The notes beneath the pieces were generated by a model, which saw only the letters and a program-made list of their open reading frames with translations, ran no database searches and was not told the DNA's origin. From a virus: a stretch of DNA of 64,000 nucleotides. The translations under genes were made by a program, and so were the position numbers. The stretch is taken from positions 2,522-66,521 of IMG/VR virus record IMGVR_UViG_3300031972_002304, one strand, 5' to 3'. Below are positions 7,638 to 64,000 of this stretch, in pieces; the stretch's first letter is position 1; each line of letters starts with the position of its first letter.

Positions 7638-7713
7638 TCGGCGGCCGTGACGATCTGACAAGGCGGGAGGCGGCGATGTCGCCTCCCGATCCCGGCAATC
7701 TGGAGTGATCCCG

Positions 7714-8052
7714 ATGAAGCTTCGGTCTCTGCGGCCGCTCGAGGGCAACTATGGCTCGGTCCGGCGCAATCAGGTTTTCGACGCCACCGACCACGTCGCG
7801 CGCCGTCTGATCAACAAGGGCCTCGCCGTTCCGACCGAGATGGATATCCCGGCTGACATCGGCACTCTTTCGGTGGAGGTGGCCGAAGAGGCGACCCGCC
7901 GCCCTCCGGAGCCGCCGCGCCCGCCTTCGCCGCCGGCGCCGCCCCAGCGTGGTGGCCAGACTGGCGAGGAGGAACGGCCATCCTCGTCGGAGGAGGCCCC
8001 TCCGCGGCAGAAGCGCCGCTATCGGAGGTCAAAGGACGCAGCTTCGTCATGA
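7714..8052 (+). CDS. Small Pro-rich head-associated protein
   Basis: Follows MCP; RRLINKGLA motif; ATGA overlap with next gene. Confidence 0.6.
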   Translation: MKLRSLRPLEGNYGSVRRNQVFDATDHVARRLINKGLAVPTEMDIPADIGTLSVEVAEEATRRPPEPPRPPSPPAPPQRGGQTGEEERPSSSEEAPPRQKRRYRRSKDAASS

Positions 8053-8558
8053 CGATCAACAACGCGTGGAAGCTCGCGCCTTGGGCCGACGTCCTCTACG
8101 CCTGCGATTTCTCCTGGTGGAACCATCACCGCGGCGCGCCCGAGTTCGAAGGGCTGAAGATCAGCCAGGATTCCAAGGCCTCCGACACCTTCAAGGACGT
8201 CCGCGCCGTTCGAACGAAGCGCCGCGAAGACGGCCTGCTGCTTGGCCGGCCCGGTCATATCGGCTGGGGCGGCAACGGCGGCTTTCAGGCGCTGAACCTC
8301 GCCGTCCAGTTCGGCGCCAAGCGGATCATCCTCGTCGGCTACGACATGCATCTTGATCGCGGTCGCCACTGGCACGGCGATCACCCGAAGGGGCTGCACA
8401 ACCCGCTGCCTGGCAACGTCCGGCGCTGGCGGGCAGCGATCGACAAGAACGCGCCGCTGCTGAAGGCGTTCGGCGTGACCGTGATCAACGCGTCGATGGA
8501 ATCGGCGCTCACCGCATTCCCGAAAATGAGCCTGCTGGAGGCTTTCGATGTCGATTGA
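8049..8558 (+). CDS. Putative glycosyltransferase-like protein (MAF/DUF115/sialyltransferase-like fold)
   Basis: INNAW..ADVLYACD..WW, GNGGFQALNLA..GAKRIILVGYDM, VINAS motifs. Confidence 0.65.
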   Translation: MTINNAWKLAPWADVLYACDFSWWNHHRGAPEFEGLKISQDSKASDTFKDVRAVRTKRREDGLLLGRPGHIGWGGNGGFQALNLAVQFGAKRIILVGYDMHLDRGRHWHGDHPKGLHNPLPGNVRRWRAAIDKNAPLLKAFGVTVINASMESALTAFPKMSLLEAFDVD

Positions 8559-9075
8559 CCCTGCTGCGTTCGTTCATCCGAAGGCGCACGTCGAAGGCTC
8601 GACCGTCGGCGCGCGGACGAAGGTCTGGCAGTTCGCATCGATCGTCTGCGGCACCGTCATCGGCGCGGACTGCACGGTCGGCGCTGGCGTGGTGCTCTCT
8701 GGCCCGGTCTTCGGCGACCGGTGCAAGATCAGCTCGGGCGTGGTGATGGGGCCGGGCTTCAAGATCGGCGACGGCGTCTTCGTCGGGCCGAACGTCGTCT
8801 TCGCCAACGATGTGTGGCCGGAGTTCTCTGTCGAGGGCTACGACGACCGCCTTTTGCGCTCCGGCGACCGCTGGGCGGTGATCATCGGGAATGGGGCATC
8901 GATCGGCGCCAACGCCGTCGTGCTGCCGGGCGTGTGCATCGGCGCCGGCGCGGTAGTGGCGGCCGGGGCGGTCGTCGACCGGGATCTGCCGGACGGAACG
9001 CTTTGGTCTCGCGATGGCGGGACGCGAGGCGTTCCGGTCAACCGGCGCTCGCGAAGGATGAGGTTCGCAGGATGA
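8548..9075 (+). CDS. Hexapeptide-repeat sugar N/O-acyltransferase (WbpD/FdtC-like)
   Basis: VHPKAHV, TKVWQFA, FVGPNVVFAND, GASIGANAVVLPGV left-handed beta-helix repeats. Confidence 0.88.
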   Translation: MSIDPAAFVHPKAHVEGSTVGARTKVWQFASIVCGTVIGADCTVGAGVVLSGPVFGDRCKISSGVVMGPGFKIGDGVFVGPNVVFANDVWPEFSVEGYDDRLLRSGDRWAVIIGNGASIGANAVVLPGVCIGAGAVVAAGAVVDRDLPDGTLWSRDGGTRGVPVNRRSRRMRFAG

Positions 9076-9140
9076 GCGAGATGCAGTGGTATCAGAGACC
9101 GGTGCAGAGCGAGACGACGCCGGGCGGGGCAGGGCAGTGA
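9072..9140 (+). CDS. 22-aa micro-ORF
   Basis: ATGA overlap upstream and GTGA overlap downstream; MSEMQWYQRPVQSETTPGGAGQ. Confidence 0.4.
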   Translation: MSEMQWYQRPVQSETTPGGAGQ

Positions 9141-9754
9141 TCACCGTCGCCACGCTACTCTGGCAGCCGAACGGCTCGTCGAAGCGCTTCTCGCGCATGT
9201 ACGACGAGACTTGGGTCGAGAAGCTTTATTGCGGCTTCGCCCGCAACCTGACGCGGCCGTTCCGGTTCGTCTGCTTCGTCGACCGGCCCTACGACTTCGT
9301 GGAGCCCGCGATCGTCATGGAGCGGATCGCGGCGCGGCGCCCGACTTACGCCACATGCATCGAGCCATACCGGCTGAATGAGCCGATGATCCTGGTTGGC
9401 CTCGACACGATCGTCACCGGCAACATCGACCACCTCGCCGACTACTGCCTGACGGCGGACCGGATGGCGCTGCCGCGCGATCCGTATCACCCGGAGATCG
9501 CCTGCAACGGCGTGGCGCTGGTTCCCGCCGGCATGCGCGCGGTCGCGACGACGCACCGCGGCGAGAACGACATGGAGTGGGTGAGGGGATTCCAGCACCA
9601 CTTCACCGACGACCTCTTCCCGGGCCAGATCGTGTCCTACAAGGGCGCGGTCGAGCGGCGCGGTCTTGGCGATGCCCGCATCGTCTACTTCCACGGCGAG
9701 CGCAAGCCGCACCAACTGCCGAACGTCGGCTGGATCAAGGAGCACTGGCGATGA
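9137..9754 (+). CDS. GT-A fold glycosyltransferase
   Basis: FRFVCFVD, GLDTIVTGNID, IVYFHGERKP motifs. Confidence 0.8.
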   Translation: MITVATLLWQPNGSSKRFSRMYDETWVEKLYCGFARNLTRPFRFVCFVDRPYDFVEPAIVMERIAARRPTYATCIEPYRLNEPMILVGLDTIVTGNIDHLADYCLTADRMALPRDPYHPEIACNGVALVPAGMRAVATTHRGENDMEWVRGFQHHFTDDLFPGQIVSYKGAVERRGLGDARIVYFHGERKPHQLPNVGWIKEHWR

Positions 9755-10386
9755 TGCCTCCGGTTCTGGTCACGCCGGCGGAGGAGATGCCGGTCACGCT
9801 GGACGAGGTGCGCGCCGCGGTCCCTGGCAGCGCCGACACGGCCGACGCAGTTCTGAACGGGCTGGTCGCGACGGCTGTCCGCAGCATCGAGGAGAACCTG
9901 AACCGGGCGCTCGTGCCGCAGATCTGGCGGCAGGGATTCGATGCGTTCGACAAGATCATGCGGCTGCCGCTGCCGGCGGTGGAAGACGGGATCGGCTCGA
10001 TCACCTATCGGAACGAGGCCGGTCAGATCGCCACGGTTTCGGACGACGACTACGCCCTCGACGCTGACGAGATCGGCTCTTTCGTGCGGTTCAAGGACGA
10101 CTTCGAGACGCCTGGCGACCTCTATGAGAACGCGGCCGTGTCGATCACCTGGACTGCCGGCTATGCGGATGTCTCGAGTGGCGTCGACGGAGTCCCGCCT
10201 CCGATCAAGACGGCGATCCTGCTGGTGGTCGGCAACATCTTCCGGCTCACGAAGCCGAGCCTCGAAATCCGAATGGAGGAGTTCCCTGGCGCCGGCGAGA
10301 CGCAATATTCGAGCCCGGAGATCGTGTCCCGCGCGACCGACAACGTGGTGAAGATGCTACTCGGGCCGTTCCGGAGGTACGTGTGA
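9751..10386 (+). CDS. Head-tail connector (gp6-like)
   Basis: PVTLDEV, AGY, VPPPIKTAILL motifs; position. Confidence 0.88.
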   Translation: MMPPVLVTPAEEMPVTLDEVRAAVPGSADTADAVLNGLVATAVRSIEENLNRALVPQIWRQGFDAFDKIMRLPLPAVEDGIGSITYRNEAGQIATVSDDDYALDADEIGSFVRFKDDFETPGDLYENAAVSITWTAGYADVSSGVDGVPPPIKTAILLVVGNIFRLTKPSLEIRMEEFPGAGETQYSSPEIVSRATDNVVKMLLGPFRRYV

Positions 10387-10742
10387 CCCCGGCGGAGGCG
10401 AAGGCAAAGCTGGCTCGCATGATGGAGCAGCGCGGCGAGACCGTCCGGATCGTCAACGTCGACTTCGGCACCGGCGCCGAGGACACATGCGATGCCCGCG
10501 CCGTGGTAACCGGCTTCGCCGCGCACGAGCTTGTTGCCGGCGTCGACCTCGGCGAGCGCGACGTGCTGGTCTATGCAGACGACGTCACGCTGTCGACGCC
10601 GATCGTCGAAGGCACCATCATCATCCTGCGGAGGGCAACCGCCGAAGAGACGACGATGTCGGTATCGGAGCCGCCGGACACGTCGACGCATCGCATGGCG
10701 GGCGTGCTGATCGCCTATGCGATCAAGGCCAAGGGCGGGTAG
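10383..10742 (+). CDS. Head-tail adaptor/head closure protein
   Basis: Size and position; GTGA coupling. Confidence 0.7.
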   Translation: MTPAEAKAKLARMMEQRGETVRIVNVDFGTGAEDTCDARAVVTGFAAHELVAGVDLGERDVLVYADDVTLSTPIVEGTIIILRRATAEETTMSVSEPPDTSTHRMAGVLIAYAIKAKGG

Positions 10743-10745
10743 GCG

Positions 10746-11414
10746 ATGGCCATTTCTCGTCTTGACCCGTTCGCCCGCGAGTTCGAAGTGATGATCGACG
10801 AGATCGCCTCGCCGCCGGCCCGGGCGCAACGCCTGGCCGAGGCCGCGCAGGCCGAGATCGATCGCGCCAACGAGATCAACAGGGCCGCGCTCGGCGGCGA
10901 CCCGCGCTACGAGGTGACCGTCGACGGCCGCCGCGGAGCGCCGGTGACGACGGTGAAGGCCGGCGGCATGGTCTTCGCCGAGTGGTCGTTCATGCGAGAG
11001 GTGCTCGAATACATCGGCGCGCAACTCGTCCTCTCATCGCCGGTGCGCAGCGGTCGCTACTCGCAGTCGCACATCCTGCTCATTGACGGGAACGAGCACT
11101 CCGGAGGCGAGCCGCCCGAGACGTTCGATAACGCGATTTTCGCCAGCGTCGTGCCCTACGCCCGCAAGATCGAGCGCGGACTGTCGCGGCAGGCGCCGGA
11201 GGGCGTCTACGAGGTCGTCGCCGCGATGGCGCGCCGGCGCTTCGGCAACGTCGCCAAGGTCCAGTTCAGCTACCGATCGCTGGTCGGCATGTCGATGCTC
11301 GAGGCGTGGGCGCAGCAGACCACGATGCTGAAGGTCGGCCGCCGGCGGATGAACGACAGCGAGCGCGAAAACTGGCTCCGGCGGCAGCCGGCGATCATCG
11401 TGGAGCCGTACTGA
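10746..11414 (+). CDS. Neck protein (HK97 gp10-like)
   Basis: SPVRSGRY, PYARKIERG.SRQAPEG motifs. Confidence 0.75.
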   Translation: MAISRLDPFAREFEVMIDEIASPPARAQRLAEAAQAEIDRANEINRAALGGDPRYEVTVDGRRGAPVTTVKAGGMVFAEWSFMREVLEYIGAQLVLSSPVRSGRYSQSHILLIDGNEHSGGEPPETFDNAIFASVVPYARKIERGLSRQAPEGVYEVVAAMARRRFGNVAKVQFSYRSLVGMSMLEAWAQQTTMLKVGRRRMNDSERENWLRRQPAIIVEPY

Positions 11415-11415
11415 A

Positions 11416-11829
11416 ATGGCGCACCGCCTCGTTGAAGCCGCCTTCCGCGCCCGTCTCGCCGCCGGCTTCAGCGGCTGCCAGATCTATCCGAAGGGCAAGA
11501 CCGCCGCGCCATCGAATGGCGCCGCCTTCTTGGTCCTTCAGTTTCCGCATTCGACCAGCATGCAAGCGAGCGTCGGCGACCCGGGGAACAACCGATACCG
11601 GGAAGAGGGCGGGGCCCGGTTTGTCCTGAATGTGAAATCGAACTCGGCGCCGGCCATCGCGCAGGGCGACCAGTGGTGCGAGGAGATAGCCGAACTCTTC
11701 CGCGGCAAGCGGTTCGACGGCGTGCTGACTTTCGCGCCCGGCTCGCCGACCTTCGACGACGAGAGCGACAACGCAGGGTATTTCACCATGTCGTTCGCCG
11801 TTCCGTACCTGTTCAATTTCATCGAATAG
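11416..11829 (+). CDS. Tail terminator protein
   Basis: YREEGG, LFRGKRF motifs; precedes tail tube. Confidence 0.75.
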   Translation: MAHRLVEAAFRARLAAGFSGCQIYPKGKTAAPSNGAAFLVLQFPHSTSMQASVGDPGNNRYREEGGARFVLNVKSNSAPAIAQGDQWCEEIAELFRGKRFDGVLTFAPGSPTFDDESDNAGYFTMSFAVPYLFNFIE

Positions 11830-30602: not shown

Positions 30603-31790
30603 CTACGTTTTCGGCTTGTTCCTGGCGGCGACTCGCGCGGCCGCCGCGGCTCTGGTTTTGTCGAGCGTCCCGCGGCTGTAGATCGCCGTTGTCGCGATCT
30701 GCGAATGGTTCGCGTGGTGTCGCATCGTCTCGAGGTCGACGCCAGCCGTTGTGCCCTCGGTGACGCCTCCGGCGCGGCTGTCGCGGTTCCACACGCCATC
30801 GGGCACACCAGCCTTGCGCGCGATCGCCCGCCACATCTGGAAGAAGTTTCGATAGCGATAGGGCAGGCCGGTCGTCTCGTTCTTGACGATGGGCCCCAAG
30901 CGGTTCTCCGCAGGGATCAACGCCAGGCACTCGGCGACGAGCGGATAGGCCGCCGTGTCATGCACGGCCTGCTGACCGGTCTTCGTGGTCTTCTTCCGCA
31001 GCACGCCGTCGCGATCGATGTCAGACCACTGCACGCCGCCGCTCCACCGCTGGCCGCGATCGACGATTCCGCTGGCGCTCTCGCGGTTCGGCGTCCATTC
31101 CCCGATGACGTCGATCTGGCGCAGGGTGAGTTCGAACTGAAGGGCCTGGGCGATGGCGATGGAAGGCCGGCCCATCTCGATCGCCTTCAGGATTATCGCG
31201 CTGCTCTGTTCGAAGGTGACGAATTCTGACCGGGCAGCCGGACTGGCGAAGCGCATGGCCGCCAAGATCGCCGCAAGCCTGGCGCACTCGGGGATGTCCA
31301 TCGTGACGCCGAACTTCACGACGATGCGCAGGATCTGCATGGCCTTGAAAGCCCGGCGGACGCGCTCGGGGCCACCTTCGTCCCGAGGCTCGCGCAGCTT
31401 CGTGTACCAGCGCCGGAAGTCGGCGCCGTTCAGCCGGGCGAGGATGCGGTCGCCGACGGCTGTCTCCAGAAGGTCGAGGGATTCGCCGTACATGCGCCGG
31501 CTGTTGTCCTTCAGCGCGTGGAACGGGCTTTCCGGGGTCTTGCGGTAGAGCGTGATCAGGCCGCGCAGGGTGCCGTCGAAGCGCGCGCCGGCATCACCGT
31601 TGCCGGACAGCCATTCGAGCAGCTCGGCCGTGTAGCGCTGGCAGAGGTGGGCGATCGCCGCCTCGTCGGTTTCGTGGATGCGGATCGTGGGCGTCGGGTA
31701 GCCGTCGGCTTTCTTGGAGATGGCCTTCGCCACCCAATAGAGCGCGGCGCCGCCGGCGCGCTTTCGCCGCTGGAGGCCGGGTGTTCTCAC
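30603..31790 (-). CDS. int: Tyrosine integrase
   Basis: LRQIDV, KKTTKTG, RDSRAGG, HANHS, terminal Y motifs; next to attP. Confidence 0.92.
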   Translation of the reverse strand: MRTPGLQRRKRAGGAALYWVAKAISKKADGYPTPTIRIHETDEAAIAHLCQRYTAELLEWLSGNGDAGARFDGTLRGLITLYRKTPESPFHALKDNSRRMYGESLDLLETAVGDRILARLNGADFRRWYTKLREPRDEGGPERVRRAFKAMQILRIVVKFGVTMDIPECARLAAILAAMRFASPAARSEFVTFEQSSAIILKAIEMGRPSIAIAQALQFELTLRQIDVIGEWTPNRESASGIVDRGQRWSGGVQWSDIDRDGVLRKKTTKTGQQAVHDTAAYPLVAECLALIPAENRLGPIVKNETTGLPYRYRNFFQMWRAIARKAGVPDGVWNRDSRAGGVTEGTTAGVDLETMRHHANHSQIATTAIYSRGTLDKTRAAAAARVAARNKPKT

Positions 31791-41147: not shown

Positions 41148-41894
41148 TCAGCCGTCGATCCGCCGGCGGTGCTTCCGGATGATGTCGTCGACGATCGCGA
41201 TGATGGCGATCTCCTCGCCGTTGTCCGGTTCGTGGTCGGGGATGATCCGCAGGCTCTTGTGCGTGCCATTGCTCGAGATCGGCCGCAGCTCCTGCATTCC
41301 GTCCGGATGGCGGAAGAGCCGCTTCACGGTGAGCTCGCGCAGGTGGCCGCCGTTCCTGGTGCGCTGGACAACCACGTCGTCGCCGTCTCGCAGTTCGAAC
41401 GGGTAATCCCAGATTTCCCAGCAGACGATCCTGTCGCCCTCCTGGATGCCGCCGCGATCCATCGAGTCACCAGCTACTTCGTAAATGACCTTTTTTGCAG
41501 ATGGGAAAGAAGGGTCCATGGGGATAACGACGCTTTCTCTTGGCTCGAAATATTCGTCAATTTCCAGCCACATTCCGGCCTGCACAACCCCGGCAACTGC
41601 GACAATTTGCCCCGCAACTGAGGCGACGGCCGACTTCGGCACGTCAATTGGCCTGGGGTTGGCTGCCCGTATCTCGTCCTGCTCGCCGTAGAGGTATTCG
41701 ACGTCGCACTGCAGCACGTCGGCGAGGCGCCGGATCGAATCCCGGCGAGGGTCTTCTGTGCGTCCGGTCTTCACGGTCGAGAGCCAGGTCGGCCCCATGC
41801 CGGCGTCCATTGACGCCTTTCGCATGGACATGCGGACGCCTTGGCTGCGCAGGTCATCGATACGTTTTTCGATGCGGGAAAAATCAATCGGCAT
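41148..41894 (-). CDS. cI: CI-like repressor (HTH + S24 peptidase)
   Basis: N-terminal HTH; VQAG cleavage site, GDSM and TVKR catalytic motifs; AAGGAGG RBS. Confidence 0.92.
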   Translation of the reverse strand: MPIDFSRIEKRIDDLRSQGVRMSMRKASMDAGMGPTWLSTVKTGRTEDPRRDSIRRLADVLQCDVEYLYGEQDEIRAANPRPIDVPKSAVASVAGQIVAVAGVVQAGMWLEIDEYFEPRESVVIPMDPSFPSAKKVIYEVAGDSMDRGGIQEGDRIVCWEIWDYPFELRDGDDVVVQRTRNGGHLRELTVKRLFRHPDGMQELRPISSNGTHKSLRIIPDHEPDNGEEIAIIAIVDDIIRKHRRRIDG

Positions 41895-41907
41895 GGCACC
41901 TCCTTAA

Positions 41908-42029
41908 ATGTCGTTTCTGGGACGGCTCTCCTTTTCAGAGTGCGCGGTGCTTTCCAACGCACACGGCCCGAACTTTTTTGCAGCACAAAAGCGACATTTA
42001 GACTTGCGCGCATCGGATAAAAGCGACAT
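41908..42029. promoter_or_regulatory. Immunity region operators (pR/pRM)
   Basis: GCATCG-GATAAAAG-CGACAT 42010-42029 shares 17 identical bp with the pL site; further sites at 41978 and 41908 (half site). Confidence 0.7.
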
Positions 42030-42038
42030 AACGAAATC

Positions 42039-42437
42039 ATGAGCAAGGCACCCACTCTCTCGTTGCGGTTCTGCAACACCATCATGACCGGACTGATCGA
42101 CGCCCTCCAGGCGAAGATCGGCGGCGCGGACACGACCGTCTCGCGCGACGCGTGCGGAAACAATCCGGATGCGGTGAAGACTTTCCGTCAGTGGGATGGG
42201 GCGAACCGATCGCCGCGCATGCTGACCGCACTGACGCTCGAGCACCACATCCGGACGAACCTGGGCGAGGCGGACTATCAGCGGGCATCGATCCGGCTGA
42301 TCGGCGAGATGCTGGCGTCGTCGATTGGCGCGCTCGCAGAAGAGACCGGCGAAAGCGCCGAGGAAATCCTGGCCGGCTTCTGCCGCGACGTCGCCGGAAA
42401 GCTTATCGAACCGAGCGGCTCCAACCTCCTCCCATAA
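42039..42437 (+). CDS. Cro-like regulator
   Basis: First gene divergent from cI; call is positional. Confidence 0.55.
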   Translation: MSKAPTLSLRFCNTIMTGLIDALQAKIGGADTTVSRDACGNNPDAVKTFRQWDGANRSPRMLTALTLEHHIRTNLGEADYQRASIRLIGEMLASSIGALAEETGESAEEILAGFCRDVAGKLIEPSGSNLLP

Positions 42438-56957: not shown

Positions 56958-57208
56958 GCGCCTTCTTCAACCTGATCGCCCATTCCCCCGGTAGGGGTGC
57001 GGTGTCCGCTACCAGGGGGGCGCCAATCGTTCTGCCGCTAAAGGCGTTCTATCGGCGGGAGCCGCGTTTCGAGCGCCGACGGGCGGCCTTCTATGCCGAC
57101 CTCGCCCGGGCCTTCGGCTCGCAAGGCTGGTCATTCCCGCGCCCGGCCATCTCCGCTACAGGTAGGCCCGGCCGGGAGGGGCGCCCGAAAGAGGTCGAGG
57201 TCAAATCC

Positions 57209-57799
57209 ATGAAGGGGCCCGGCGGCAGGCAGCTTGGCATCGACCGCGACCTCTACGGCGGCGTCGTCGAATACCTCGAGCTGACGAACGTCATCGACGA
57301 GCCGGTCAGCCTTTCCGCCAGCGATCGCGAGAAGGACGAGGCGCGCCGCTGGGGCGACATCCGCCGGCGGGTGGCCCGCAACATCCGTGAAACGGACGAA
57401 GGCGCCCAAGGCTCGCCCCTGTCATCGCCCGACTGGATGGCCACGCCGACCGGCAACGCGCCGGGCCCGACGACTGTCTCAGATGTCCGGCTCTGGTGCA
57501 TGGAAGCCATGGGCGAGCTGCACAAGCGGATGCCGGCGGACTCCATGGCCGTGATCAACTCCGAGATCCTCGGCGACGCCTTCAGTTTCATGGCGATCGA
57601 GAGCCGGGAGGCAAAGGCCATCGCGATAGAGGATCTTCGCCGGGCCCTTGACCTCGCCGCCTACATCTTCAAGCCTGGCGACGAGGTGACATGGGACCGG
57701 CTGATGAAACGCTGGCCGGAGGTTCGCTACGGCGAGTTGCGCAAGGCGATCCGCGCCGGGCGCTATGGCCGGGTGGCGCCGGCGGATCTGAGCAAGTAG
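57209..57799 (+). CDS. Putative late regulator (Q-like position)
   Basis: End of the early-right operon; LRRALD helix; start could be GTG 56954. Confidence 0.45.
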   Translation: MKGPGGRQLGIDRDLYGGVVEYLELTNVIDEPVSLSASDREKDEARRWGDIRRRVARNIRETDEGAQGSPLSSPDWMATPTGNAPGPTTVSDVRLWCMEAMGELHKRMPADSMAVINSEILGDAFSFMAIESREAKAIAIEDLRRALDLAAYIFKPGDEVTWDRLMKRWPEVRYGELRKAIRAGRYGRVAPADLSK

Positions 57800-57807
57800 G
57801 AGACACC

Positions 57808-58032
57808 ATGGCGATAGATCACACGGCCGAAGACGGCTTCCGCTTAGCGGTAATGAAGAGCGCCGAAGTGGCCGGCGCCGAGCCTGGCGGCGTAGCCGTC
57901 ACGGTGACGGATGATCTGGCCGGCGGCTACGGCTATTTCGGCTTCATCTACCTCAAGTCGGAGCAGGAATTCCGAGCTTTCGTCGAGCACGTCAAGAGCG
58001 TCGGTCGGTCTGTCGGATGGGAAGCGGATTGA
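57808..58032 (+). CDS. Hypothetical protein
   Basis: AGGAG RBS. Confidence 0.6.
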   Translation: MAIDHTAEDGFRLAVMKSAEVAGAEPGGVAVTVTDDLAGGYGYFGFIYLKSEQEFRAFVEHVKSVGRSVGWEAD

Positions 58033-58065
58033 CATCTTCGCCACAAGGGGCCCGCAGCATTTGCG

Positions 58066-58329
58066 CTACGGGCCCTGTTCGTCGATGAGTTCCTCCTCCG
58101 TCACCCTCAGCGCCCGGCGCATGTTCTGCGGATTGGCGAGCAGGACGAGCAGCACCCTGAGCCAGTGAGGTGCCGCGTCCTGCTCGGCCTGGGCTTCCAG
58201 ATAGCGCTGCAGGCTGCGCGGCTGGGCGCCGGTGAGGCGAGACAACTGGCGAAGCGTCAGGCCGGCGTCGGTCATGGCGCGGGACATCTCCGCGCCCGTC
58301 ATGCGTCTGTGCCTGTATCGTTGGCTCAC
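58066..58329 (-). CDS. Small HTH protein (XRE/Aca-like)
   Basis: MTGAEM..AM..AGLT..QLSRLTG..RSLQRY..PHW..LL; AAGGA RBS. Confidence 0.75.
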   Translation of the reverse strand: MSQRYRHRRMTGAEMSRAMTDAGLTLRQLSRLTGAQPRSLQRYLEAQAEQDAAPHWLRVLLVLLANPQNMRRALRVTEEELIDEQGP

Positions 58330-58454
58330 GGCCGTTTCCTTTCGCTGGTGCGCCATGCTCGGCGTCTGGTGGGTCCGCCTCGGAATATGCGAGGCGCGCC
58401 GCCTGGCCGCAACTGCGGCGCGCCAATTGCCTCGGTGGAGGGTGGGGATCTCCG

Positions 58455-59354
58455 CTACAGGTCGTTCCTGATGCCGACGAAGACCGGAAAGCGCGGCGCG
58501 CCCTTTGATCCCAGCCCCTGAAACTTGAACGTGACGAGCTGGCCGGGCAAGGCGTCGCGCCGCGCCCAAAGGTCGGCCCGGGTCGCATCGTCCATGCCGG
58601 TGCCGATCTCGAAGGCGACGCCGCTATAGGTGGCCTGCAGCGCGCCCAACGTGCCGCAAGGGACCAGGCCGGCCTTTGCGCTTGATCGCTTGGAGCGGCC
58701 GAGCGCGTCCCGCTCCGCCTCGTTGCCGTTGTGCATGCGCTCCACGGTCCCGGTAATGACCGCCTCGGCATCCTCGAAGCGCTTCACCTTCAGCAAGATT
58801 CCCTCACGCGCCGTCGATCGGCCGAACTTGTAGCGCCCGGCCGGGTCGCGGAGCATGACGCCTTCCCAGCCTTCGACGTCGACGCATTGACGCTCGAAGG
58901 CGACGAGCTCGGCCGCATCAGAAATCAGCCGGTGCGTGACGAATGCAACCGGGTGGCCGGCTGCCTCGGCCGATATGGCGAAGATGGCTGCGGCGTCCAG
59001 GCGCTTCGAAAAATGCGCGTCCCATGCCTTGAAGCAGTCGAAGACGTGAAACCGCGCGTCCGGCGCGCCGTCGGCGCTCATGACCTTCGATTGCACCGTG
59101 TTGAAATCGTCCCGAACACCGTTGGTATAGGTCAGCAGCTCGCCGTCCAGGTGCGGCTGCAGGCCGGCCATGATGCTCTGAATGTGCCGGTTCGGGATCG
59201 GCTTCAGGTTCCTCGAGCAGATGACAGGCAGGATGCCGGTAAGCGCCCGGATCCCATCGATCTTGGGCGAGGCGAGGACCGGGAAGCGCGCCGCCTCCAG
59301 GTCGGCCTTTTCCGCCAGTAGGGGCTTGAAGCCGGCGGGGTGAATCGTGGTCAT
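58455..59354 (-). CDS. ATP-dependent DNA ligase
   Basis: SPKIDGIR, LDGEL, VFD, EGVMLR, LKVK, PRFP motifs. Confidence 0.95.
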   Translation of the reverse strand: MTTIHPAGFKPLLAEKADLEAARFPVLASPKIDGIRALTGILPVICSRNLKPIPNRHIQSIMAGLQPHLDGELLTYTNGVRDDFNTVQSKVMSADGAPDARFHVFDCFKAWDAHFSKRLDAAAIFAISAEAAGHPVAFVTHRLISDAAELVAFERQCVDVEGWEGVMLRDPAGRYKFGRSTAREGILLKVKRFEDAEAVITGTVERMHNGNEAERDALGRSKRSSAKAGLVPCGTLGALQATYSGVAFEIGTGMDDATRADLWARRDALPGQLVTFKFQGLGSKGAPRFPVFVGIRNDL

Positions 59355-59433
59355 GTCGGTTCCTTTCTGGTCTGCCATGATCGGCAAGGCGCCATTGTGC
59401 GCCGGTAGTGGGTGGATATGCGCCGGTAGCGGG

Positions 59434-59655
59434 TCAGCGCTTGCGCCTGGCGGCGGCGTTCCGCTCCATCTCGCGTCGGAAGTAGTCGGCTTGCGGCGGT
59501 AGATCGTTGCGCCGCCGCTTGATGCCTTCGCGGATCGAATGAGCGCACCAATAGCCGGCGCATCCGTCGTCGCCTTCGATGTCGCGGCTGATCGAATGCG
59601 TTCGATTGCAGCCGGCGCAAAACCATGTCTTCGGGGTCGCGAATGGTCCGGGCAT
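59434..59655 (-). CDS. Small Cys-containing protein
   Basis: AGGA RBS; CAGC..H..C..C. Confidence 0.55.
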   Translation of the reverse strand: MPGPFATPKTWFCAGCNRTHSISRDIEGDDGCAGYWCAHSIREGIKRRRNDLPPQADYFRREMERNAAARRKR

Positions 59656-59748
59656 GGCACGAGCCTTTCCTGTTGCACCGCTCGGGCACCTAGATTGTTC
59701 GTCGGTGGAGGAGTGCGGCGCCGGATCGCCCGACGCCGCTACAAGGGG

Positions 59749-60054
59749 CTAGATGCGCGGCGCCTGAAGCTCGCCGGAGAATGACGAAGCGTCCCAGCCC
59801 TCGGCATAGAGCGTAAGGAACTTGCGCACCTTCGACGGGCTGGCGACATAGGCGCGCCCGCGCCCCGTCCAGCGGCAGTTCAGACCGTCGCCGATTAGCC
59901 GAGCCGCCCGCGTCTTGTAGCCGTCGCAGGACGGCGCCCGGACCTGCAGCATTCCCTTGGCATAGGGCGCCACGGAAACGCTGTAGTCCTCGGTCTGGAG
60001 GATCGCGCCCGCTTCCTTGAGAGCATCGAATGCGGCTTTGCCTGTGGTGTTCAT
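59749..60054 (-). CDS. Hypothetical protein
   Basis: AAGGA RBS with leader hairpin. Confidence 0.7.
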   Translation of the reverse strand: MNTTGKAAFDALKEAGAILQTEDYSVSVAPYAKGMLQVRAPSCDGYKTRAARLIGDGLNCRWTGRGRAYVASPSKVRKFLTLYAEGWDASSFSGELQAPRI

Positions 60055-60147
60055 CGTCGTTTCCTTCAAAGGGCGCGCCATGATCGGCGCTTGTTCGGCT
60101 CTAGCGGCCGGAAGACGGGCGCAACGCGGCGCCCGTCACACAAGGCG

Positions 60148-60279
60148 CTAGTAGGGCAGGGACTGGCGAGCGGCCGCGATGGCGCGCCACGCCGGCAACG
60201 TCGCCCTGAAATGGCGGTAGGCTTCAATCAGCAGGATTGCTTCATCGAATGTGCGAGATGGCAGGATTCGTTTGCGCAA
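60148..60279 (-). CDS. Small hypothetical protein (43 aa)
   Basis: AAAGG RBS, TTG start; MRKRILPSRTFDEAILLIEAY... Confidence 0.4.
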   Translation of the reverse strand: MRKRILPSRTFDEAILLIEAYRHFRATLPAWRAIAAARQSLPY

Positions 60280-60290
60280 GGTCGTGCCTT

Positions 60291-60566
60291 TCACGGAATC
60301 AGGATCATGCAGCCGAACCCGAAGAGAAAAGCCGACAGCGCGGCAAGCGCGGCCAGATCCTTCAGGAATGCCCGGACCGGCTGCGGCTCGAGCCCGACGC
60401 TGCGCAAGTCGGAGTGCCGCTGCAGCCGATCGGCCTTCATCATCAGCCGCTCATGGCGCCGATAGTCGCGGCGCTTCATCACGCCGAAACAGGCCTTGCG
60501 CTCCAGGTGGTGAAGCTCGCGGCGCATGGCCGGCGGGACGGGATCGAAAGCGTTCGCCATGGTCAC
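60291..60566 (-). CDS. Hypothetical protein with C-terminal TM
   Basis: GTGA coupling; LAALAALSAFLFGFGCMILIP. Confidence 0.6.
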   Translation of the reverse strand: MTMANAFDPVPPAMRRELHHLERKACFGVMKRRDYRRHERLMMKADRLQRHSDLRSVGLEPQPVRAFLKDLAALAALSAFLFGFGCMILIP

Positions 60567-61228
60567 GCCTCCGGCTTGATGGAAGCGATAGCAGCTTCAC
60601 GCGTGGCAAAGTGAGCGCGGCCGTCAAAGCCGACAGACGGGCCTTCGTCATCGACTTCGGCTTCGTCGTCTGTCGCGACGTACCATCCGCCGATGTCGTG
60701 GCCGATATAGAATCCCTCCGGCGCAAGCGGTTCGGCGTCCGAATGCATCTCGTCATAGATCCGCTCAATCACGGCGTCCGACGCGATGCCTTGCCCGGTC
60801 GTGGTACGCGCCCAGACCGTCAGCCCGGCGAAATCCTTGTCGACCTTCTCGCCCTTCTCGGCGAGCTTGTCAGCGAGCCAGTCGGAAACGATCCAGTGCT
60901 CGAAAACCTCGCTGTCGATCGGCTCAAGGTCCCAATCCTCGCAAGCATCCTCGGCACTGCTGTAAGTCGCGTCCTTCGAGGCGCTATGCCACTCGCCGGA
61001 CGCGGTGCGAGAGAAGCCGGCTTGAATGGCCGCCTCTTCAAAATCGGCGATCGGAAAGGCGAGTTCCTGCGCCTGATCCATCAGCGTGCCGAGGTCGTCG
61101 GCGCCGTGGCTGTAGTCGCTGCCGGCAAGCGTCGAGACGAGCGCCGAAACGCAATAGTGCACCTCGCGATTGACGAAGGCCTGAACGGCCGATTGATCGT
61201 CTGAGGGGCGGATTTTGGACGGGTTCAT
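60563..61228 (-). CDS. Highly acidic hypothetical protein
   Basis: GAGGA RBS; EVFEHWIVSDWLA..L..GE..WARTTTGQ.I..D. Confidence 0.8.
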   Translation of the reverse strand: MNPSKIRPSDDQSAVQAFVNREVHYCVSALVSTLAGSDYSHGADDLGTLMDQAQELAFPIADFEEAAIQAGFSRTASGEWHSASKDATYSSAEDACEDWDLEPIDSEVFEHWIVSDWLADKLAEKGEKVDKDFAGLTVWARTTTGQGIASDAVIERIYDEMHSDAEPLAPEGFYIGHDIGGWYVATDDEAEVDDEGPSVGFDGRAHFATREAAIASIKPEA

Positions 61229-61266
61229 AGTGGTGGTTCCTCAAAGGCGCGCCACAATTGGCGCTG

Positions 61267-61893
61267 TTAGTGAACGGAGGTGAGCGAGCGAGCGGCTTGC
61301 TTGCCGGCCACGTAGCGGCGAGCGGCGCCCACCATGTCGATACCAGGGATCGTCGGCAGGTCGCCGCCCAGCGCTTCCTGTACGGCTGCCAGCTTCGCCA
61401 GCAGCTCGAAACACAGATCCCGGTATTGATTGCGCGTCAGGAACGACGCATCGAGGTCGCGAGCGTCCATGCCGCGCGGCCGAACCGCCGTGGCCGGCTC
61501 GACACGCCGCGCCGGGGCTGCCCGGCGATGCGCCTTGACCTTCACCGGCCGCTCGACAGCCATGCGCCGGTATTCGGTGAACACGTTGATGATTTCCCGC
61601 CGCGCCTCGGCAGACCGATCTGTGCGGCTGAACATCACCACGACGAGCGCCTGTTCTTCCGTCAGCCAGTATTCAGCGACTTCGCGCTTCGCGCCGCTGC
61701 CGATTTCGACCATCGCCGCACGGCGCGGCAATGGTGCATAGGTGTGGAGCTCCGAGGCGTTGCGAGCGATGATGTCGCGGATATTGCGCGGACGGTCGAA
61801 ACCCAGCGCTTTGCCGAGGTCAACGTCGCGAACGCGTGGCGTCTCATCGTCGATTATGGCGAGGTCGGAAGCGGAAATATGGAAAGCGGTCAT
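61267..61893 (-). CDS. ant: Antirepressor (KilA-N/Bro-like N-terminus)
   Basis: RVRDVDLG..LGF..IR.II.RN..EL, EYWLTEEQA..M.S.T; preceded by C4 element. Confidence 0.8.
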   Translation of the reverse strand: MTAFHISASDLAIIDDETPRVRDVDLGKALGFDRPRNIRDIIARNASELHTYAPLPRRAAMVEIGSGAKREVAEYWLTEEQALVVVMFSRTDRSAEARREIINVFTEYRRMAVERPVKVKAHRRAAPARRVEPATAVRPRGMDARDLDASFLTRNQYRDLCFELLAKLAAVQEALGGDLPTIPGIDMVGAARRYVAGKQAARSLTSVH

Positions 61894-61942
61894 AGCCGTG
61901 GCCCTACGTTTGGTGTGGACCTGACCGGCAATTTCCAGATTG

Positions 61943-62019
61943 GCGGCCAGGCAACGGCGGGCTGGAAAACCGCGACGTAGGGCACGGCAGCCCGAAGGCT
62001 CCCACCGCGCCTGACCATA
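61943..62019 (-). ncRNA. C4-like antisense RNA
   Basis: Stem GGUCAGGC/GCCUGGCC, UUCG hairpin; segments GCCCUACG and UUUCCAG complementary to flanking CGTAGG(G)C and CTGGAAA copies at ~62083-62107 and ~61901-61938. Confidence 0.85.
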
Positions 62020-62265
62020 GAGCCGGAGCTTGGACTCCGAGCAAAGAAAAACGCGCTCGGAAGAGCTTCCGGCGCGTGTGGCGCCTACGAACGGTGCGGT
62101 TTCCAGGCCGCATCCGATCCCTTTTCGATCGGACAAGTTGAAGGTGGCACCGATCGCCAATCCCGTCAAGCCGAAAATCGAATTAAAACTACATTCTAGG
62201 AAGGAGGATGCAGCCGCAGGCCGTTTCTGCCATACAGAGGGCATTTCAACGGTGGAGGGAACAGT

Positions 62266-62652
62266 ATGTTGAGAACGGCAATTGCAGCGCTGCTGATGAT
62301 CGCATCGGCGCCGGCCCTTGCACAAACTGTCCAGGACCAGTCCGACAAGAATCTGTCGGATGAAGATGCAGCTGCCGTCATCCATGCGGCATCCCGCGAC
62401 GCTTTCGACGCGGAATCCGCCCGCTTCCTGTCGCTCAACTACATGCAGAACGAAGACGGCCCGGTGAAACAGCATATTTGCGGGTTCATGAATGCGAAGA
62501 ACCGCATGGGTGGATATGTCGGCTATCAGCCTTTCGTCTACAACGTGGCGGACAAGAAAGCGTTCTTCATGCCCGACGCCGTAGCAGAGCAGCCAGGAGC
62601 AAAAGAGACCTTCGTTAAGATGGTCGAGGCGATGGGCTGTCCCCGCCCATAG
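62266..62652 (+). CDS. Secreted protein (moron)
   Basis: GGAGG RBS; signal peptide ending ALA; CG..NAKNRMGGYVG motif. Confidence 0.8.
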   Translation: MLRTAIAALLMIASAPALAQTVQDQSDKNLSDEDAAAVIHAASRDAFDAESARFLSLNYMQNEDGPVKQHICGFMNAKNRMGGYVGYQPFVYNVADKKAFFMPDAVAEQPGAKETFVKMVEAMGCPRP

Positions 62653-62726
62653 CATTGGGGTTTTCACAAGATCATTCCTTGCTGGCGCGCCATGCTCGGC
62701 GCTTCGATGCTGAGAGAGATTTCCGC

Positions 62727-62879
62727 CTAGCAGGCGAGCCACTCCGATTTGCGCGCGATGGCGTCGCGCCGCTCGCTCCGGCGGATCCGCTTGCGAGCAT
62801 TCGCCCGGAAGCCGTCGTCGTCGATCAGCGCGTTATCGTTCGCCGCGCTCCGGCGGTTGTCATTGTGATGCGTCCGCAT
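62727..62879 (-). CDS. Small basic protein (50 aa)
   Basis: AGGAGG RBS; MRTHHNDNRRSAANDN... Confidence 0.65.
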   Translation of the reverse strand: MRTHHNDNRRSAANDNALIDDDGFRANARKRIRRSERRDAIARKSEWLAC

Positions 62880-62977
62880 TTTCCGTCCTCCTGTGTGGGT
62901 CGCCATGATCGGCGGGGTTCGGCCTGGCAGCCGGTAGGCAGGCGCCCGCAAGCGCCGGCCAGTCTGCGGCCAGTGGG

Positions 62978-63448
62978 TTAGGCGACTCGATCGAAGGCGA
63001 TGTCGTCGCGACCCGACATGATGACGCGGGCGCACCATGCCTTTGCCTTCGCGAGCGACCGAAAGCCGGGATTTTCGCCCGCGTTGCCATCGTGCTCGAC
63101 TTGAAACCATCCGCAATGGCAAGCGATCGAATATCGTTCGCCCGAATGGTGACGCGTCACGCCGTCGTTTCCGGCTGCCCTGCGCCACACGATCGGCGCA
63201 GCGCGATGCTTGAATGCTTCCCGGTGCGCGCCAAGTTCGCACTCCGCCTTTGCCTGCAGGCGCGCCGCATGGGCGTCAGCTGCAGCCTTGTCCGGATATG
63301 CGGCAATGATGCAGCGATCGTTCCACACTGCCCAGCCTGTCGGCTCGACTGCCCAGCCTGGCCCATGCGGCGCCGCTCCGTAAAAGCTGCAGCTGCGCCC
63401 GTCAGTGTGGCGCCATACGTGATCCAGGGTAACGCGAAAGCTGGTCAT
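62978..63448 (-). CDS. Hypothetical protein
   Basis: GAGGA RBS; FRSLAKAKAW motif. Confidence 0.7.
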   Translation of the reverse strand: MTSFRVTLDHVWRHTDGRSCSFYGAAPHGPGWAVEPTGWAVWNDRCIIAAYPDKAAADAHAARLQAKAECELGAHREAFKHRAAPIVWRRAAGNDGVTRHHSGERYSIACHCGWFQVEHDGNAGENPGFRSLAKAKAWCARVIMSGRDDIAFDRVA

Positions 63449-63488
63449 GGTCGTTCCTCAGTGGCGCGCCATAGTCGGCGCTAGTTGA

Positions 63489-63674
63489 TCAGGCTGCAGC
63501 GAATGCGGCGAGCGCTTCCTCGCGATCGCTGAATTTCATCATGACGGTTTCGCCGCGACCGAACATGCCATTCTCGCCCTTCGTCTTCACAGTGACGGTA
63601 AAGCGCGGGCGCCGGGCGCCGCTCTGCAGGACGTTGGCAATCGTGGTCTCTGTGATCTTCTCGGCAATGAACAT
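63489..63674 (-). CDS. Small hypothetical protein, first gene of the array
   Basis: AAGGA RBS; FSDREEA motif. Confidence 0.7.
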   Translation of the reverse strand: MFIAEKITETTIANVLQSGARRPRFTVTVKTKGENGMFGRGETVMMKFSDREEALAAFAAA

Positions 63675-63715
63675 CTGTCGGTCCTTTATGGCTCACCATG
63701 TTCGGCGATGACGTG

Positions 63716-63769
63716 AATATGCGGCACCATTCGAAAGCAGTCAATATGAATGTCGAAAAAAAACGACAT
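63716..63769 (-). promoter_or_regulatory. Sigma70-type promoter with perfect palindromic operator
   Basis: TTGACT-N17-CATATT (63744-63716); ATGTCG-A8-CGACAT at 63750-63769. Confidence 0.75.
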
Positions 63770-64000
63770 GAAACGACACGGCCGCAAGCCTGGCAATAGG
63801 CAAGGCCGCAAGCCGGGCGCCTGGTCGACGATTGGCAGCTCGCCGCATCTCGTCGACGCCGCTTGGCGCAATTCCATTCCGATAAATGACACCTCGTCGA
63901 CGGTCGGATACCGCCGGCATTCTCCAAAACCTCCAAAAATCGGAATGATTTTGCCGAAATAGGGGGCGGGTCGAAAGTCGTCGGCCTTGGATGCTGTCAC

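Follow-up and report, generated by a model that had tools for sequence, protein, structure and literature searches.

The window analysed here is a stretch of 64,000 nucleotides of viral DNA, corresponding to bases 2522-66521 of a single 66,521-bp contig, and within it an array of small genes on the minus strand carries eight short hairpins. These eight elements are copies of one unit of ~40-48 nt, which we call the start-associated hairpin leader. We consider it highly probable that the leader is a cis element that acts at the RNA level and is linked to start codons, and on sequence grounds its features point to shared control of translation or message stability. As to how such control would be exerted, our preferred hypothesis, to which we assign a probability of roughly one in three, is that the hairpin is a translational operator for a factor encoded in the array. 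The new elements of this work are one leader family that spans the window and two related phages (designated L027 and L129) with pooled covariation, an orphan copy of the leader, the stem-RCCA arrangement, and the g3 protein family as a candidate reader of the hairpin. The setting is also new: the leaders appear to lie in an operon behind a CI-type operator, which also contains a C4/Ant module.

All eight hairpins listed in the initial annotation were recovered as 16-mers on the minus strand. Each leader proceeds from an A/C-rich, G-poor run through a G+C stem of 4-6 bp, a G.U or A-U closing pair and a tetraloop to an RCC(A) sequence, a purine-rich Shine-Dalgarno (SD) sequence and the start codon. 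Leader 1 (63672-63714; 29.6 bits with the covariance model R1, discussed below) contains the hairpin UCGCC-GAACAU-GGUGA at 63708-63693, followed by GCCA, the SD and the ATG of g1 at 63674. In leader 2 (63446-63487; 36.1 bits) the hairpin GCGCC-GACUAU-GGCGC at 63481-63466 is followed by GCCA, the SD and the ATG of g2 at 63448, and in leader 3 (62877-62921; 33.0 bits) CGCC-GAUCAU-GGCG at 62915-62900 precedes the SD and the ATG of g3 at 62879. Leader 4 (62665-62708; 34.9 bits), with GCGCC-GAGCAU-GGCGC at 62702-62687, GCCA and an SD, is an orphan: downstream there is only a three-codon open reading frame (ORF) or a GTG that opens a spurious 491-codon frame. Leader 5 (61226-61270; 35.2 bits) has GCGCCA-AUUG-UGGCGC at 61264-61249, an SD and the ATG of g6 at 61228; leader 6 (60052-60096; 36.2 bits) has GCGCC-GAUCAU-GGCGC at 60090-60075, an SD and the ATG of g9 at 60054. 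Leader 7 (59352-59393; 29.7 bits) consists of UGCC-GAUCAU-GGCA at 59387-59372, in which a stem U-A pair is a double change relative to C-G, then ACCA, the SD and the ATG of a DNA ligase gene at 59354. Finally, leader 8 (58327-58371; 29.7 bits) has CGCC-GAGCAU-GGCG at 58365-58350, ACCA, the SD and the GTG of a helix-turn-helix (HTH) gene at 58329. When the G.U or A-U closing pair is counted, the tetraloops are, in order, AACA, ACUA, AUCA, AGCA, AUUG, AUCA, AUCA and AGCA, so that the ANYA consensus proposed for seven of the eight is correct for the window. NCC follows the stem in all eight copies and N-CCA in six, and in the 6-nt 5' flanks A accounts for 40%, C for 35% and G for 15%, as compared to 19%, 32% and 31% regionally.

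The distance to the start codon is nearly constant. From copy 1 to copy 8, the 16-mer ends 18, 17, 20, 19, 20, 20, 17 and 20 nt before the start, in agreement with the 17-21 nt of the initial annotation; the SD sequences are of the AGGA/AAGG type, as had been proposed, and end 7-10 nt ahead of the start, and the hairpin's 3' end lies 5-9 nt upstream of the SD. When copies from relatives are pooled with those of the window, the gap is 12-20 nt in 25 of 25. The stop-to-start regions range from 44 to 131 nt, and the distance from the upstream stop is far more variable than the start gap, which indicates that the element belongs to the downstream gene. A repeat finder defined the unit as a direct repeat of 35-48 nt (63-83% identity) that runs from the 5' arm through the start codon, and it is therefore the whole leader, rather than the hairpin alone, that is repeated. 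It might seem that every gene of the array is headed by a hairpin, as the initial annotation proposed. This is true of seven supported genes, but copy 4 is an orphan, and the genes for Ant, g7, g8 and g10 have no leader. Because the leader is absent from the coupled genes g7 and g8, from the C4-controlled ant gene and from the rest of the genome, it marks those cistrons that need their own initiation.

Two additional properties of the window's hairpins deserve mention. The 3' arm and flank of hairpins 2, 4, 5 and 6 read TGGCGCGCC(A), which in copies 2 and 4 forms a perfect 10-nt palindrome overlapping the dyad; this palindrome is not seen in the relatives and is probably a by-product of GC-rich arms. 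Also, an AUG or GUG stands at the junction of loop and 3' arm in every window hairpin and shares its frame with the annotated start in six of the eight copies. We considered whether these codons extend the proteins at their N-termini and rejected the idea, because two of the six in-frame copies meet a stop and only one of the six copies in L027 is in frame. The in-frame codons are probably due to chance.

The motif is not equally frequent at random positions. Its core, GCCRANYRTGGC, occurs 10 times in the window, where 0.74 occurrences are expected (the maximum in 100 shuffles was 4), and seven of the 10 are in the array, all on the minus strand. An unfiltered scan of the whole window with R1 gave eight matches of 29.6-36.2 bits, which are the eight array copies, and a next-best match of 15.3 bits; since R1 was trained on these same eight copies, the informative part of this result is the absence of further matches elsewhere. 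A regular-expression search of the entire 66,521-bp contig likewise found no further start-associated copy, so the initial annotation's impression that the hairpin does not stand upstream of genes elsewhere holds. In a census by loop only, in which pairing was not used, there were 619 [AG]AN[CT][AG]T hexamers, of which 25 had four complementary flanking pairs; the array copies account for eight of these 25. No U-run or T-run follows any of the eight copies, and our scan of 57500-64000 detected neither a minus-strand terminator-like site nor a promoter at the internal copies. An Rfam cmscan of 57000-64000 (E<=1) had C4 (RF01695) as its sole family above threshold and placed no family on the hairpins; at copy 4 there was a chance-level match of 22.5 bits (gathering score 50).

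The leader is common to the window and three other uncultured temperate phages, where it stands ahead of mostly unrelated genes. L027, a 65-kb provirus record, has six copies of the form CCGCCA-NCNN-UGGCAC and the syntenic order g3, C4-like region, Ant, g6. L129, a 64.8-kb record that is 96% complete, carries one same-strand cluster of eight copies, seven of them strong and one weak. The third, L065, is a 2.9-kb metagenome contig with four copies, whose loop is GAUUGU and whose stems GCCUC, CCUC, GGCUC and GCCCC have matching 3' arms. Single copies were found in L018/L019/L051 and in L095. The loops are similar inside each genome and different across genomes (AUUG, AUYG and NCNN in the relatives). 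In L129 the stems have drifted (GGCC, GCUC, CGCC, UCUC, UGCC), but their closing A-U pair, the C-G pair next to it and the A-U/C-Y-G loop are kept. Any pair of arrays shares only g3, g6, Ant, the HTH domain and one 77-amino-acid gene, the remainder being unrelated. Across arrays, identity is 41-58% for g6, 33% for Ant and 28% for the HTH domain, and for g3 it is 36% between the window and L027 and 52-59% among L027, L129 and L065.

Relatives of g6 were found at 26 viral loci and 80 metagenome loci that were kept; most have no hairpin, and some have repeated leaders of their own. Because these other g6-bearing phages use different repeated leaders, the leader goes with the genome and not with the gene. 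Among annotated relatives of the array genes, the closest is from Rhizobium phage RHph_N65, with a g6 homologue that is 60% identical; in this phage (L015), a different hairpin, AAGGGCG-CGCG-TCGCCCTT, occurs after two genes, at 7590-7640 and 7895-7945. In L017, positions 7900-11800 contain a repeated promoter and a fixed AAGGCAAGGCA (with the SD) ahead of ATG, and L018 has two near-identical leaders at 1240-1870, one with a hairpin and one without.

The arrays in relatives were reached by protein-guided searches; exact-motif and blastn searches found none. In IMG/VR, the exact window motif has 14 single, non-leader matches and no array. The motif plus SD gave one chance-like match in a set of one genome each for 185,579 species. 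A 45-nt leader, compared by blastn with 50,697 GenBank phage records, gave 23 single-place matches with E values of at least 3, mostly inside coding sequences. The L027-type pattern matched only its own contig and two array-free contigs, and the L065-type pattern had no matches.

The initial annotation described the stem changes as compensatory, and the pooled copies bear this out. The set consists of 25 copies from five sources in a gap-free alignment. The four inner pairs show standard pairing in 100 of 100 cells, with pair types of GC 17, CG 6, UA 1 and GU 1 at the first; CG 19 and UA 6 at the second; CG 25 at the third; and AU 13 and GU 12 at the fourth. Double-sided, pair-keeping changes number 23 cells, as against 8.1+-2.0 in shuffled alignments (none of 500 shuffles reaches 23), the covariation score is 0.482 against 0.218, and sliding the 3' partner by 1-3 columns leaves at most 52% of cells paired. 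The two outer pairs are paired in 27 of 50 cells and in none of those from L027, where the stem is 4 bp. As isolated 16-mers, 27 of 27 copies fold as the canonical hairpin (-2.7 to -9.4 kcal/mol); within longer window leaders this hairpin is present in the minimum-free-energy or centroid structure for six of eight, copies 1 and 8 favouring other folds.

These data also indicate the strand on which the fold is relevant. G.U accounts for 12 of the 25 closing pairs and for three further pairs; on the opposite strand each would be a C.A mismatch, and in duplex DNA the site is asymmetric. Every copy is co-oriented with its gene, including all eight in the window, and when the two relatives' records G006 and G001 were scanned with a covariance model, as the initial annotation had suggested, the matches (eight and six, respectively) formed a single same-strand cluster in each. 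Because the G.U pairs assign the fold to the sense strand and the copies are co-oriented with their genes, the data point to a hairpin that forms in the sense-strand mRNA and not to a DNA operator. A strand-specific, covarying, start-tied hairpin confined to one operon fits the proposal of a shared RNA signal that co-regulates the array.

We therefore considered what might read the hairpin. A specific reader is suggested by three facts: the stems of L129 drift while the closing pair, the pair beside it and most of the loop persist, the loops are genome-specific, and the hairpin ends shortly before the SD. There is also a precedent, in that Aca2 and Aca1 bind hairpins in 5' untranslated regions (UTRs) and such motifs have likewise been reported between neighbouring genes of an operon (PMC13551039). 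Given the suggestion of a specific reader and this precedent, we prefer the hypothesis of a translational operator. A factor encoded by the array would bind the loop and upper stem of the hairpin. Situated 5-9 nt from the SD, at the 5' edge of the footprint of the 30S subunit, the bound factor would hinder docking of the ribosome. Such a block, imposed at once on every independently initiated cistron, would subject the accessory genes to coordinated feedback or shut them off together.

The first candidate for this factor would be g3, a tiny Arg-rich helix protein, and the second would be g12, the terminal HTH protein. The g3 family comprises 24 clusters (P0001-P0024) of 35-63 amino acids with the core RIRRxxRRAAIAxKxxW/F-L, and several of these are on contigs of 50-68 kb. 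The protein in the window is predicted to form one confident basic helix over RRxxRRxxIAxKxxW, with a predicted local distance difference test (pLDDT) score of 89 for residues 31-40 and 90 for residues 41-50. Genes of the g3 family are found in all four array-bearing sources (the window, L027, L065 and L129), and a g12-like HTH domain follows the array on the same strand in both relatives' records that were searched (G006 and G001).

It is important to emphasize that several observations weigh against the operator hypothesis or against the alignment that underlies it. Copies from relatives were initially chosen by eye, which biases the set toward paired copies, and one leader-placed copy in each of L065 (at 2569) and L129 (at 14111) is poorly paired. 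The bias is partly offset by loop-defined censuses, in which four of seven occurrences in L065 were fully flanked, all four being leaders, and in L129 five of 22 were, including four with the context of a leader, and by two copies that were missed by eye and found with model R2 (L129 6389, 34.0 bits; L095 934, 21.3 bits); both are fully paired and have new stem variants, although R2 does reward pairing. The folding energies of the 54-57-nt window leaders are ordinary (z -0.72 to +0.56). As to the candidate readers, g3 homologues occur on L059 (3.6 kb) and L063 (1.4 kb), where R2 finds no leader (E<=0.05). The description of g3 as RNA-binding rests on composition and a predicted helix, since the protein had no match in Pfam, PHROGs, NCBIfam, PDB sequences or Atlas. 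The g12 protein is weakly HTH-like, and a sequence search of the PDB gave no match for it, Aca structures included. An operator model does not account for the RCC(A) that is conserved downstream of the stem in the window and L129, and the likeness of copies within a genome could result from duplication or gene conversion.

The main rival hypothesis, which we regard as possible although the odds are against it, is that the hairpins are punctuation for processing or stabilization. RNase E or RNase P would cut the A/C-rich run 5' of each hairpin, so that each cistron then begins with a flush, protective 5' stem-loop and its SD is kept clear of upstream structure. The transcription start of the array is predicted at ~63709 from a promoter placed 8 nt ahead of hairpin 1; the -10 element ends at 63716 and hairpin 1 begins at 63708, that is, at the predicted start. 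The first copy in L129 has the same layout (TTGCAA-17-CATATC, then 6 nt, then the stem). Because the first copy starts at the predicted transcription start, internal copies that had been cut in this way would mimic a primary 5' end. By contrast, the first copies in L027 and L065 are ~40-45 nt downstream of the likely promoter. The A/C-rich, G-poor 5' flanks and the strong G+C hairpins that directly follow the upstream stop in long intergenic gaps are also in favour of processing, but a plain stabilizer has no need of a conserved loop.

The sequence after the stem is relevant to the same hypothesis. In addition to the N-CCA and NCC of the window copies, an R-CCA-type sequence follows six of seven L129 copies. 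Stem-R-CCA is the shape of hairpin model substrates of RNase P, and this enzyme processes the C4 precursor of phages P1 and P7 as well as some operon mRNAs (PMC4919922); a C4 RNA is encoded in the operon studied here. However, CCA follows none of the six L027 copies and none of the four L065 copies, and it therefore cannot be the core function that is shared. Moreover, stems of 4-6 bp are far below the 12-bp stack of acceptor and T arm. We judge it unlikely that the hairpins of the window and L129 are tRNA-acceptor-like microhelices that recruit host RNase P to cut 5' of each. The operon RNA would thereby be punctuated into cistrons whose flush 5' stem-loop is the one that heads the primary transcript. 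If this were true, bacterial viruses would have their own version of the tRNA punctuation of mitochondria, with 16-nt elements as its parts.

It is quite improbable, in our estimation, that the leaders are mainly handles for recombination, with RecT-type annealing swapping single-gene cassettes and any role in expression being secondary. Gene content differs almost wholly between arrays while the leader persists, the orphan leader 4 adjoins an inverted moron, an in-frame hairpin-like relic lies inside g2, and the two leaders of L018 are alike save that one lacks the hairpin. The repeat unit is 35-48 nt long with 63-83% identity, the genes of the phage include those for a RecT/Bet-like annealase and for an exonuclease, and exchange between PeSL copies has been documented in T4-type phages (PMC2839356). 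However, compensatory changes and a fixed start distance reflect selection on an RNA fold, for which recombination has no need, and the internal copies have neither a promoter nor a U-run and so are not PeSL-type cassettes. In addition, no close relative suitable for mapping indel breakpoints was found in IMG/VR, the 185,579-species set, GenBank phages or the public runs.

A very improbable alternative is antitermination as in the N/boxB system, in which g3 would be a minimal Arg-rich antiterminator that loads on the nascent hairpins and permits read-through of intercistronic G+C hairpins. The size of the hairpin (a 5-bp stem and, in the window, a 6-nt loop starting with GA) resembles that of the 15-nt boxB, g3 has a predicted basic helix, strong hairpins follow several stop codons, and N peptides of 19-22 residues adopt a bent helix when they bind boxB (PMC11480772). 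However, an operon has few nut sites, not one for each cistron, and these need no fixed distance from a start, the loops are not conserved across genomes, and a profile search of PDB sequences found no N peptide for g3. Lambdoid N proteins carry parts that bind NusA and the polymerase and have ~100 amino acids; with 35-63, the g3 family has no room for such parts.

Least probable of all, and in our opinion scarcely credible, is a site that functions in DNA, either as an operator for a dimeric HTH protein or as a phage-specific promoter before each gene: the sequence does have dyad symmetry, with half-site centres ~9 bp apart, an HTH gene closes the array, and for the inverted repeats of the mycobacteriophage elements discussed below the authors preferred DNA binding (PMC3203893), but the covariation preserves complementarity and not sequence, 12 of 25 closing pairs are G.U and hence asymmetric in DNA, the interval from dyad to SD is too small for -10 and -35 elements, and the candidate operator of the array promoter is a different palindrome. 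The idea of promoters for a phage RNA polymerase was dropped, since neither an RNA polymerase nor a sigma factor is among the 20 large ORFs scanned, as was that of integron attC sites, which have the wrong size and for which no integron integrase is nearby.

Judged from its gene set, the virus is a 66.5-kb temperate siphophage. Stretches of the window are contained in public runs from seawater and estuary metagenomes. The window encodes a terminase and further large plus-strand ORFs of up to 1429 amino acids; the family search covered 20 large ORFs. Replication and recombination genes include those for the RecT/Bet-like annealase, the exonuclease, helicases, a primase, a DnaB-like helicase and DNA methyltransferases. 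On the minus strand there are an integrase gene (30606-31790) and a gene for a CI-type repressor (41151-41894; phrog_4, E 2.9e-20).

The array appears to be a leftward operon behind a putative CI-type operator, and it also houses the C4 antisense RNA and anti-repressor module. A sigma-70-like promoter on the minus strand, TTGACT-17-CATATT (63716-63744), matches the consensus and lies 8 nt before hairpin 1; it is the single promoter-like site in 57500-64000, as compared to 1.1 expected, and is thus not significant by itself. The palindrome ATGTCG-T8-CGACAT (63750-63769, minus strand), 5 nt upstream of the -35 element, is a candidate CI operator. Its half-site, ATGTCG/CGACAT, occurs three times in the cI-cro intergenic region (41880-42060, within 41900-42040), and these half-sites constitute a candidate CI operator set that joins the control regions of the array promoter and of cI-cro. 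CI control of the array promoter is plausible, binding at the palindrome being suggested by the half-site common to the cI-cro region. Thus, of the initial proposal that the first copy starts at the transcription start of an operator-controlled promoter, the part concerning the promoter stands, and operator control, like the label "early" for the array genes, is something that we infer from the CI-type operator. Four public runs, including one RNA run, were available as contigs, from which RNA ends cannot be read. In the metatranscriptome run, contigs cover 61898-62078 (identical) and 62509-62718, which is not proof of transcription. The contigs of the four runs contain no joints or structural variants; they are fragments of the same phage and differ by at most 1-2 letters.

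Unless noted otherwise, the genes of the array are on the minus strand. The first, g1 (63489-63674; 61 amino acids), and g2 (62978-63448; 156) have no family match, and no relatives of g2 were found in IMG/VR. The relic inside g2 (63199-63182) has arms GCGCC/GGCGC and an 8-nt loop, is in frame, and is followed by GGAAAC and GTG; a VWR motif is present in both halves of the protein. Thus, g2 may be a fusion of two former cassettes. The candidate RNA binder g3 (62727-62879; 50 amino acids) has its C-terminal helix at residues 34-49. Next, on the plus strand, comes the moron (62266-62652; 128 amino acids; phrog_2320, E 4.6e-12), which has a signal-peptide-like N-terminus and fills the space directly behind orphan leader 4; it looks like a gene that was replaced or inserted at this leader.

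The C4 antisense RNA (61939-62022) is matched by Rfam RF01695 with 49.9 bits (gathering score 45, E 1.5e-7). It is immediately 5' of the gene for the Ant-like anti-repressor (61267-61893; 208 amino acids; phrog_63, E 5.7e-7), which has no hairpin leader; this arrangement is like that of the immI region of P1 and P7. At the ribosome site of ant, ACGUAGGGC is the complement of the C4 stretch GCCCUACGU. We rejected the hairpin as a target of C4, since the complement of GCCCUACGU lies in the ant SD region and not in the hairpin. An intrinsic terminator upstream of C4 was also considered and dropped, its fold being ambiguous.

Further downstream, g6 (60563-61228; 221 amino acids) is the most widespread array gene, and g7 (89 amino acids) and g8 (~43, start uncertain), at 60148-60560, are coupled to it. 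Neither g9 (59749-60054; 101 amino acids) nor g10 (59434-59655; 73) has a family match. The leader of g10 contains no canonical hairpin; a possible ninth copy there is at best a degenerate variant, which models R1 and R2 do not detect. The ATP-dependent DNA ligase (58455-59354; 299 amino acids) matches NF006592 with E 1.1e-28, under the curated cut-off. The last gene, g12 (58066-58329; 87 amino acids), encodes an XRE/MqsA-like HTH protein, with weak matches to HTH_31 (E 0.0045), phrog_664 and TIGR03830 (E 4e-4). Family searches recognized no known anti-defence gene in the array. Strong G+C hairpins occur right after the upstream stop in the gaps 62978-62915, 60148-60090, 59749-59655, 59434-59387 and 58455-58365, and one such gap hairpin, GGCGC-ACAAUG-GCGCC, directly abuts hairpin 7. 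These hairpins may protect the 3' end of the upstream cistron.

Arrays of accessory ORFan genes house the most changeable genes of temperate phages, and how imported genes come to be expressed in step is poorly understood. The leader offers a compact and testable case, in that a 16-nt covarying hairpin occupies a fixed place before the ribosome site, all copies are in one operon, and there are two small candidate readers. It is kept across phages whose proteins are 26-59% identical or unrelated. If the hypothesis of a translational operator is true, a single tiny protein would control the accessory genes as a set; if the hairpin is instead a processing signal, these phages would standardize the 5' ends of their cistrons. 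With either, model R2 would provide a searchable marker for this class of operons, and the leader could serve as a portable element for synthetic operons in high-G+C hosts.

The initial annotation called the system undescribed. A non-exhaustive full-text search of open-access papers and preprints, supplementary motif tables excluded, found no paper describing the hairpin leader, and no Rfam family matched it. However, start-associated repeats are known in kind, from the start-associated sequences (SAS) and extended SAS (ESAS) of cluster K mycobacteriophages, whose function is described as unknown in the 2011 paper (PMC3203893). Like these, the leader is a short repeat in one orientation, belongs to non-structural genes of temperate siphophages, is found at the start codons of different gene families, and is conserved across related phages (PMC3203893). 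SAS are 13-bp asymmetric sequences that contain the SD core and stand 3-7 bp from the start, and ESAS are 17-bp imperfect inverted repeats with a variable spacer of 4-13 bp, whose departures do not keep RNA pairing (PMC3203893). In contrast, the leader has a generic AGGA/AAGG SD and a conserved dyad that ends 12-20 nt before the start, which places it outside the definition of SAS, and it has arms of 4-6 nt, a fixed 4-nt loop and 23 pair-keeping double changes, which places it outside that of ESAS.

The PeSL elements of T4-type phages resemble the leader in that they are small conserved cassettes that punctuate arrays of non-essential ORFans with fluid gene content; however, a PeSL consists of a strong sigma-70 promoter and a terminator stem-loop and acts in DNA recombination (PMC2839356), whereas the leader has neither promoter nor U-run and is tied to starts. 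Most copies of the leader in the window and L129 are like the substrates of RNase P and the processing of C4 in combining a short stem-loop with R-CCA in intercistronic positions, and the operon of the window has a C4 RNA (PMC4919922), but the other two array-bearing phages have no CCA. Lambdoid N/boxB likewise has a hairpin of ~15 nt, which is read by a short Arg-rich helix from the early operon itself (PMC11480772); in the array, the predicted basic helix of g3 would be its counterpart. The leader differs in having one hairpin per cistron at a fixed SD distance, whereas the action of N is on transcription and uses one or two nut sites per operon. A nut site has a 5-bp stem and a GNRA-like pentaloop, plus boxA. 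The leader's loops are of 4 nt (6 if the closing pair is open) and vary across genomes, and no conserved box precedes it beyond the richness in A and C.

The comparison of the loops to the coat-protein operator of phage MS2, made in the initial annotation, did not survive. That operator has an ANYA loop and a bulged A and encloses the start codon. The leader has no bulge, its start codon is 12-20 nt downstream of the hairpin, and the ANYA loop, although present in seven of eight window copies, is replaced in the relatives, where it is found in one of 17 copies (L129f, AUCA).

The motifs of Aca1 and Aca2 are, like the leader, 5'-UTR hairpins beside a ribosome site, and in the Aca systems a small regulator, whose gene closes the operon, binds the hairpin and blocks translation (PMC13551039). 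There are differences: searches of Pfam, PHROGs, NCBIfam and PDB sequences did not place g12 in an Aca family, the array has eight copies as opposed to one to three, and Aca2 also binds an inverted repeat at the promoter (PMC13551039), whereas the palindrome at the array promoter is unrelated to the hairpin. Thus, the leader resembles a start-associated repeat but fails the defining features of SAS and ESAS, PeSL, nut sites and the MS2 operator, and it is the Aca RNA motifs that, by analogy, seem closest to it in logic.

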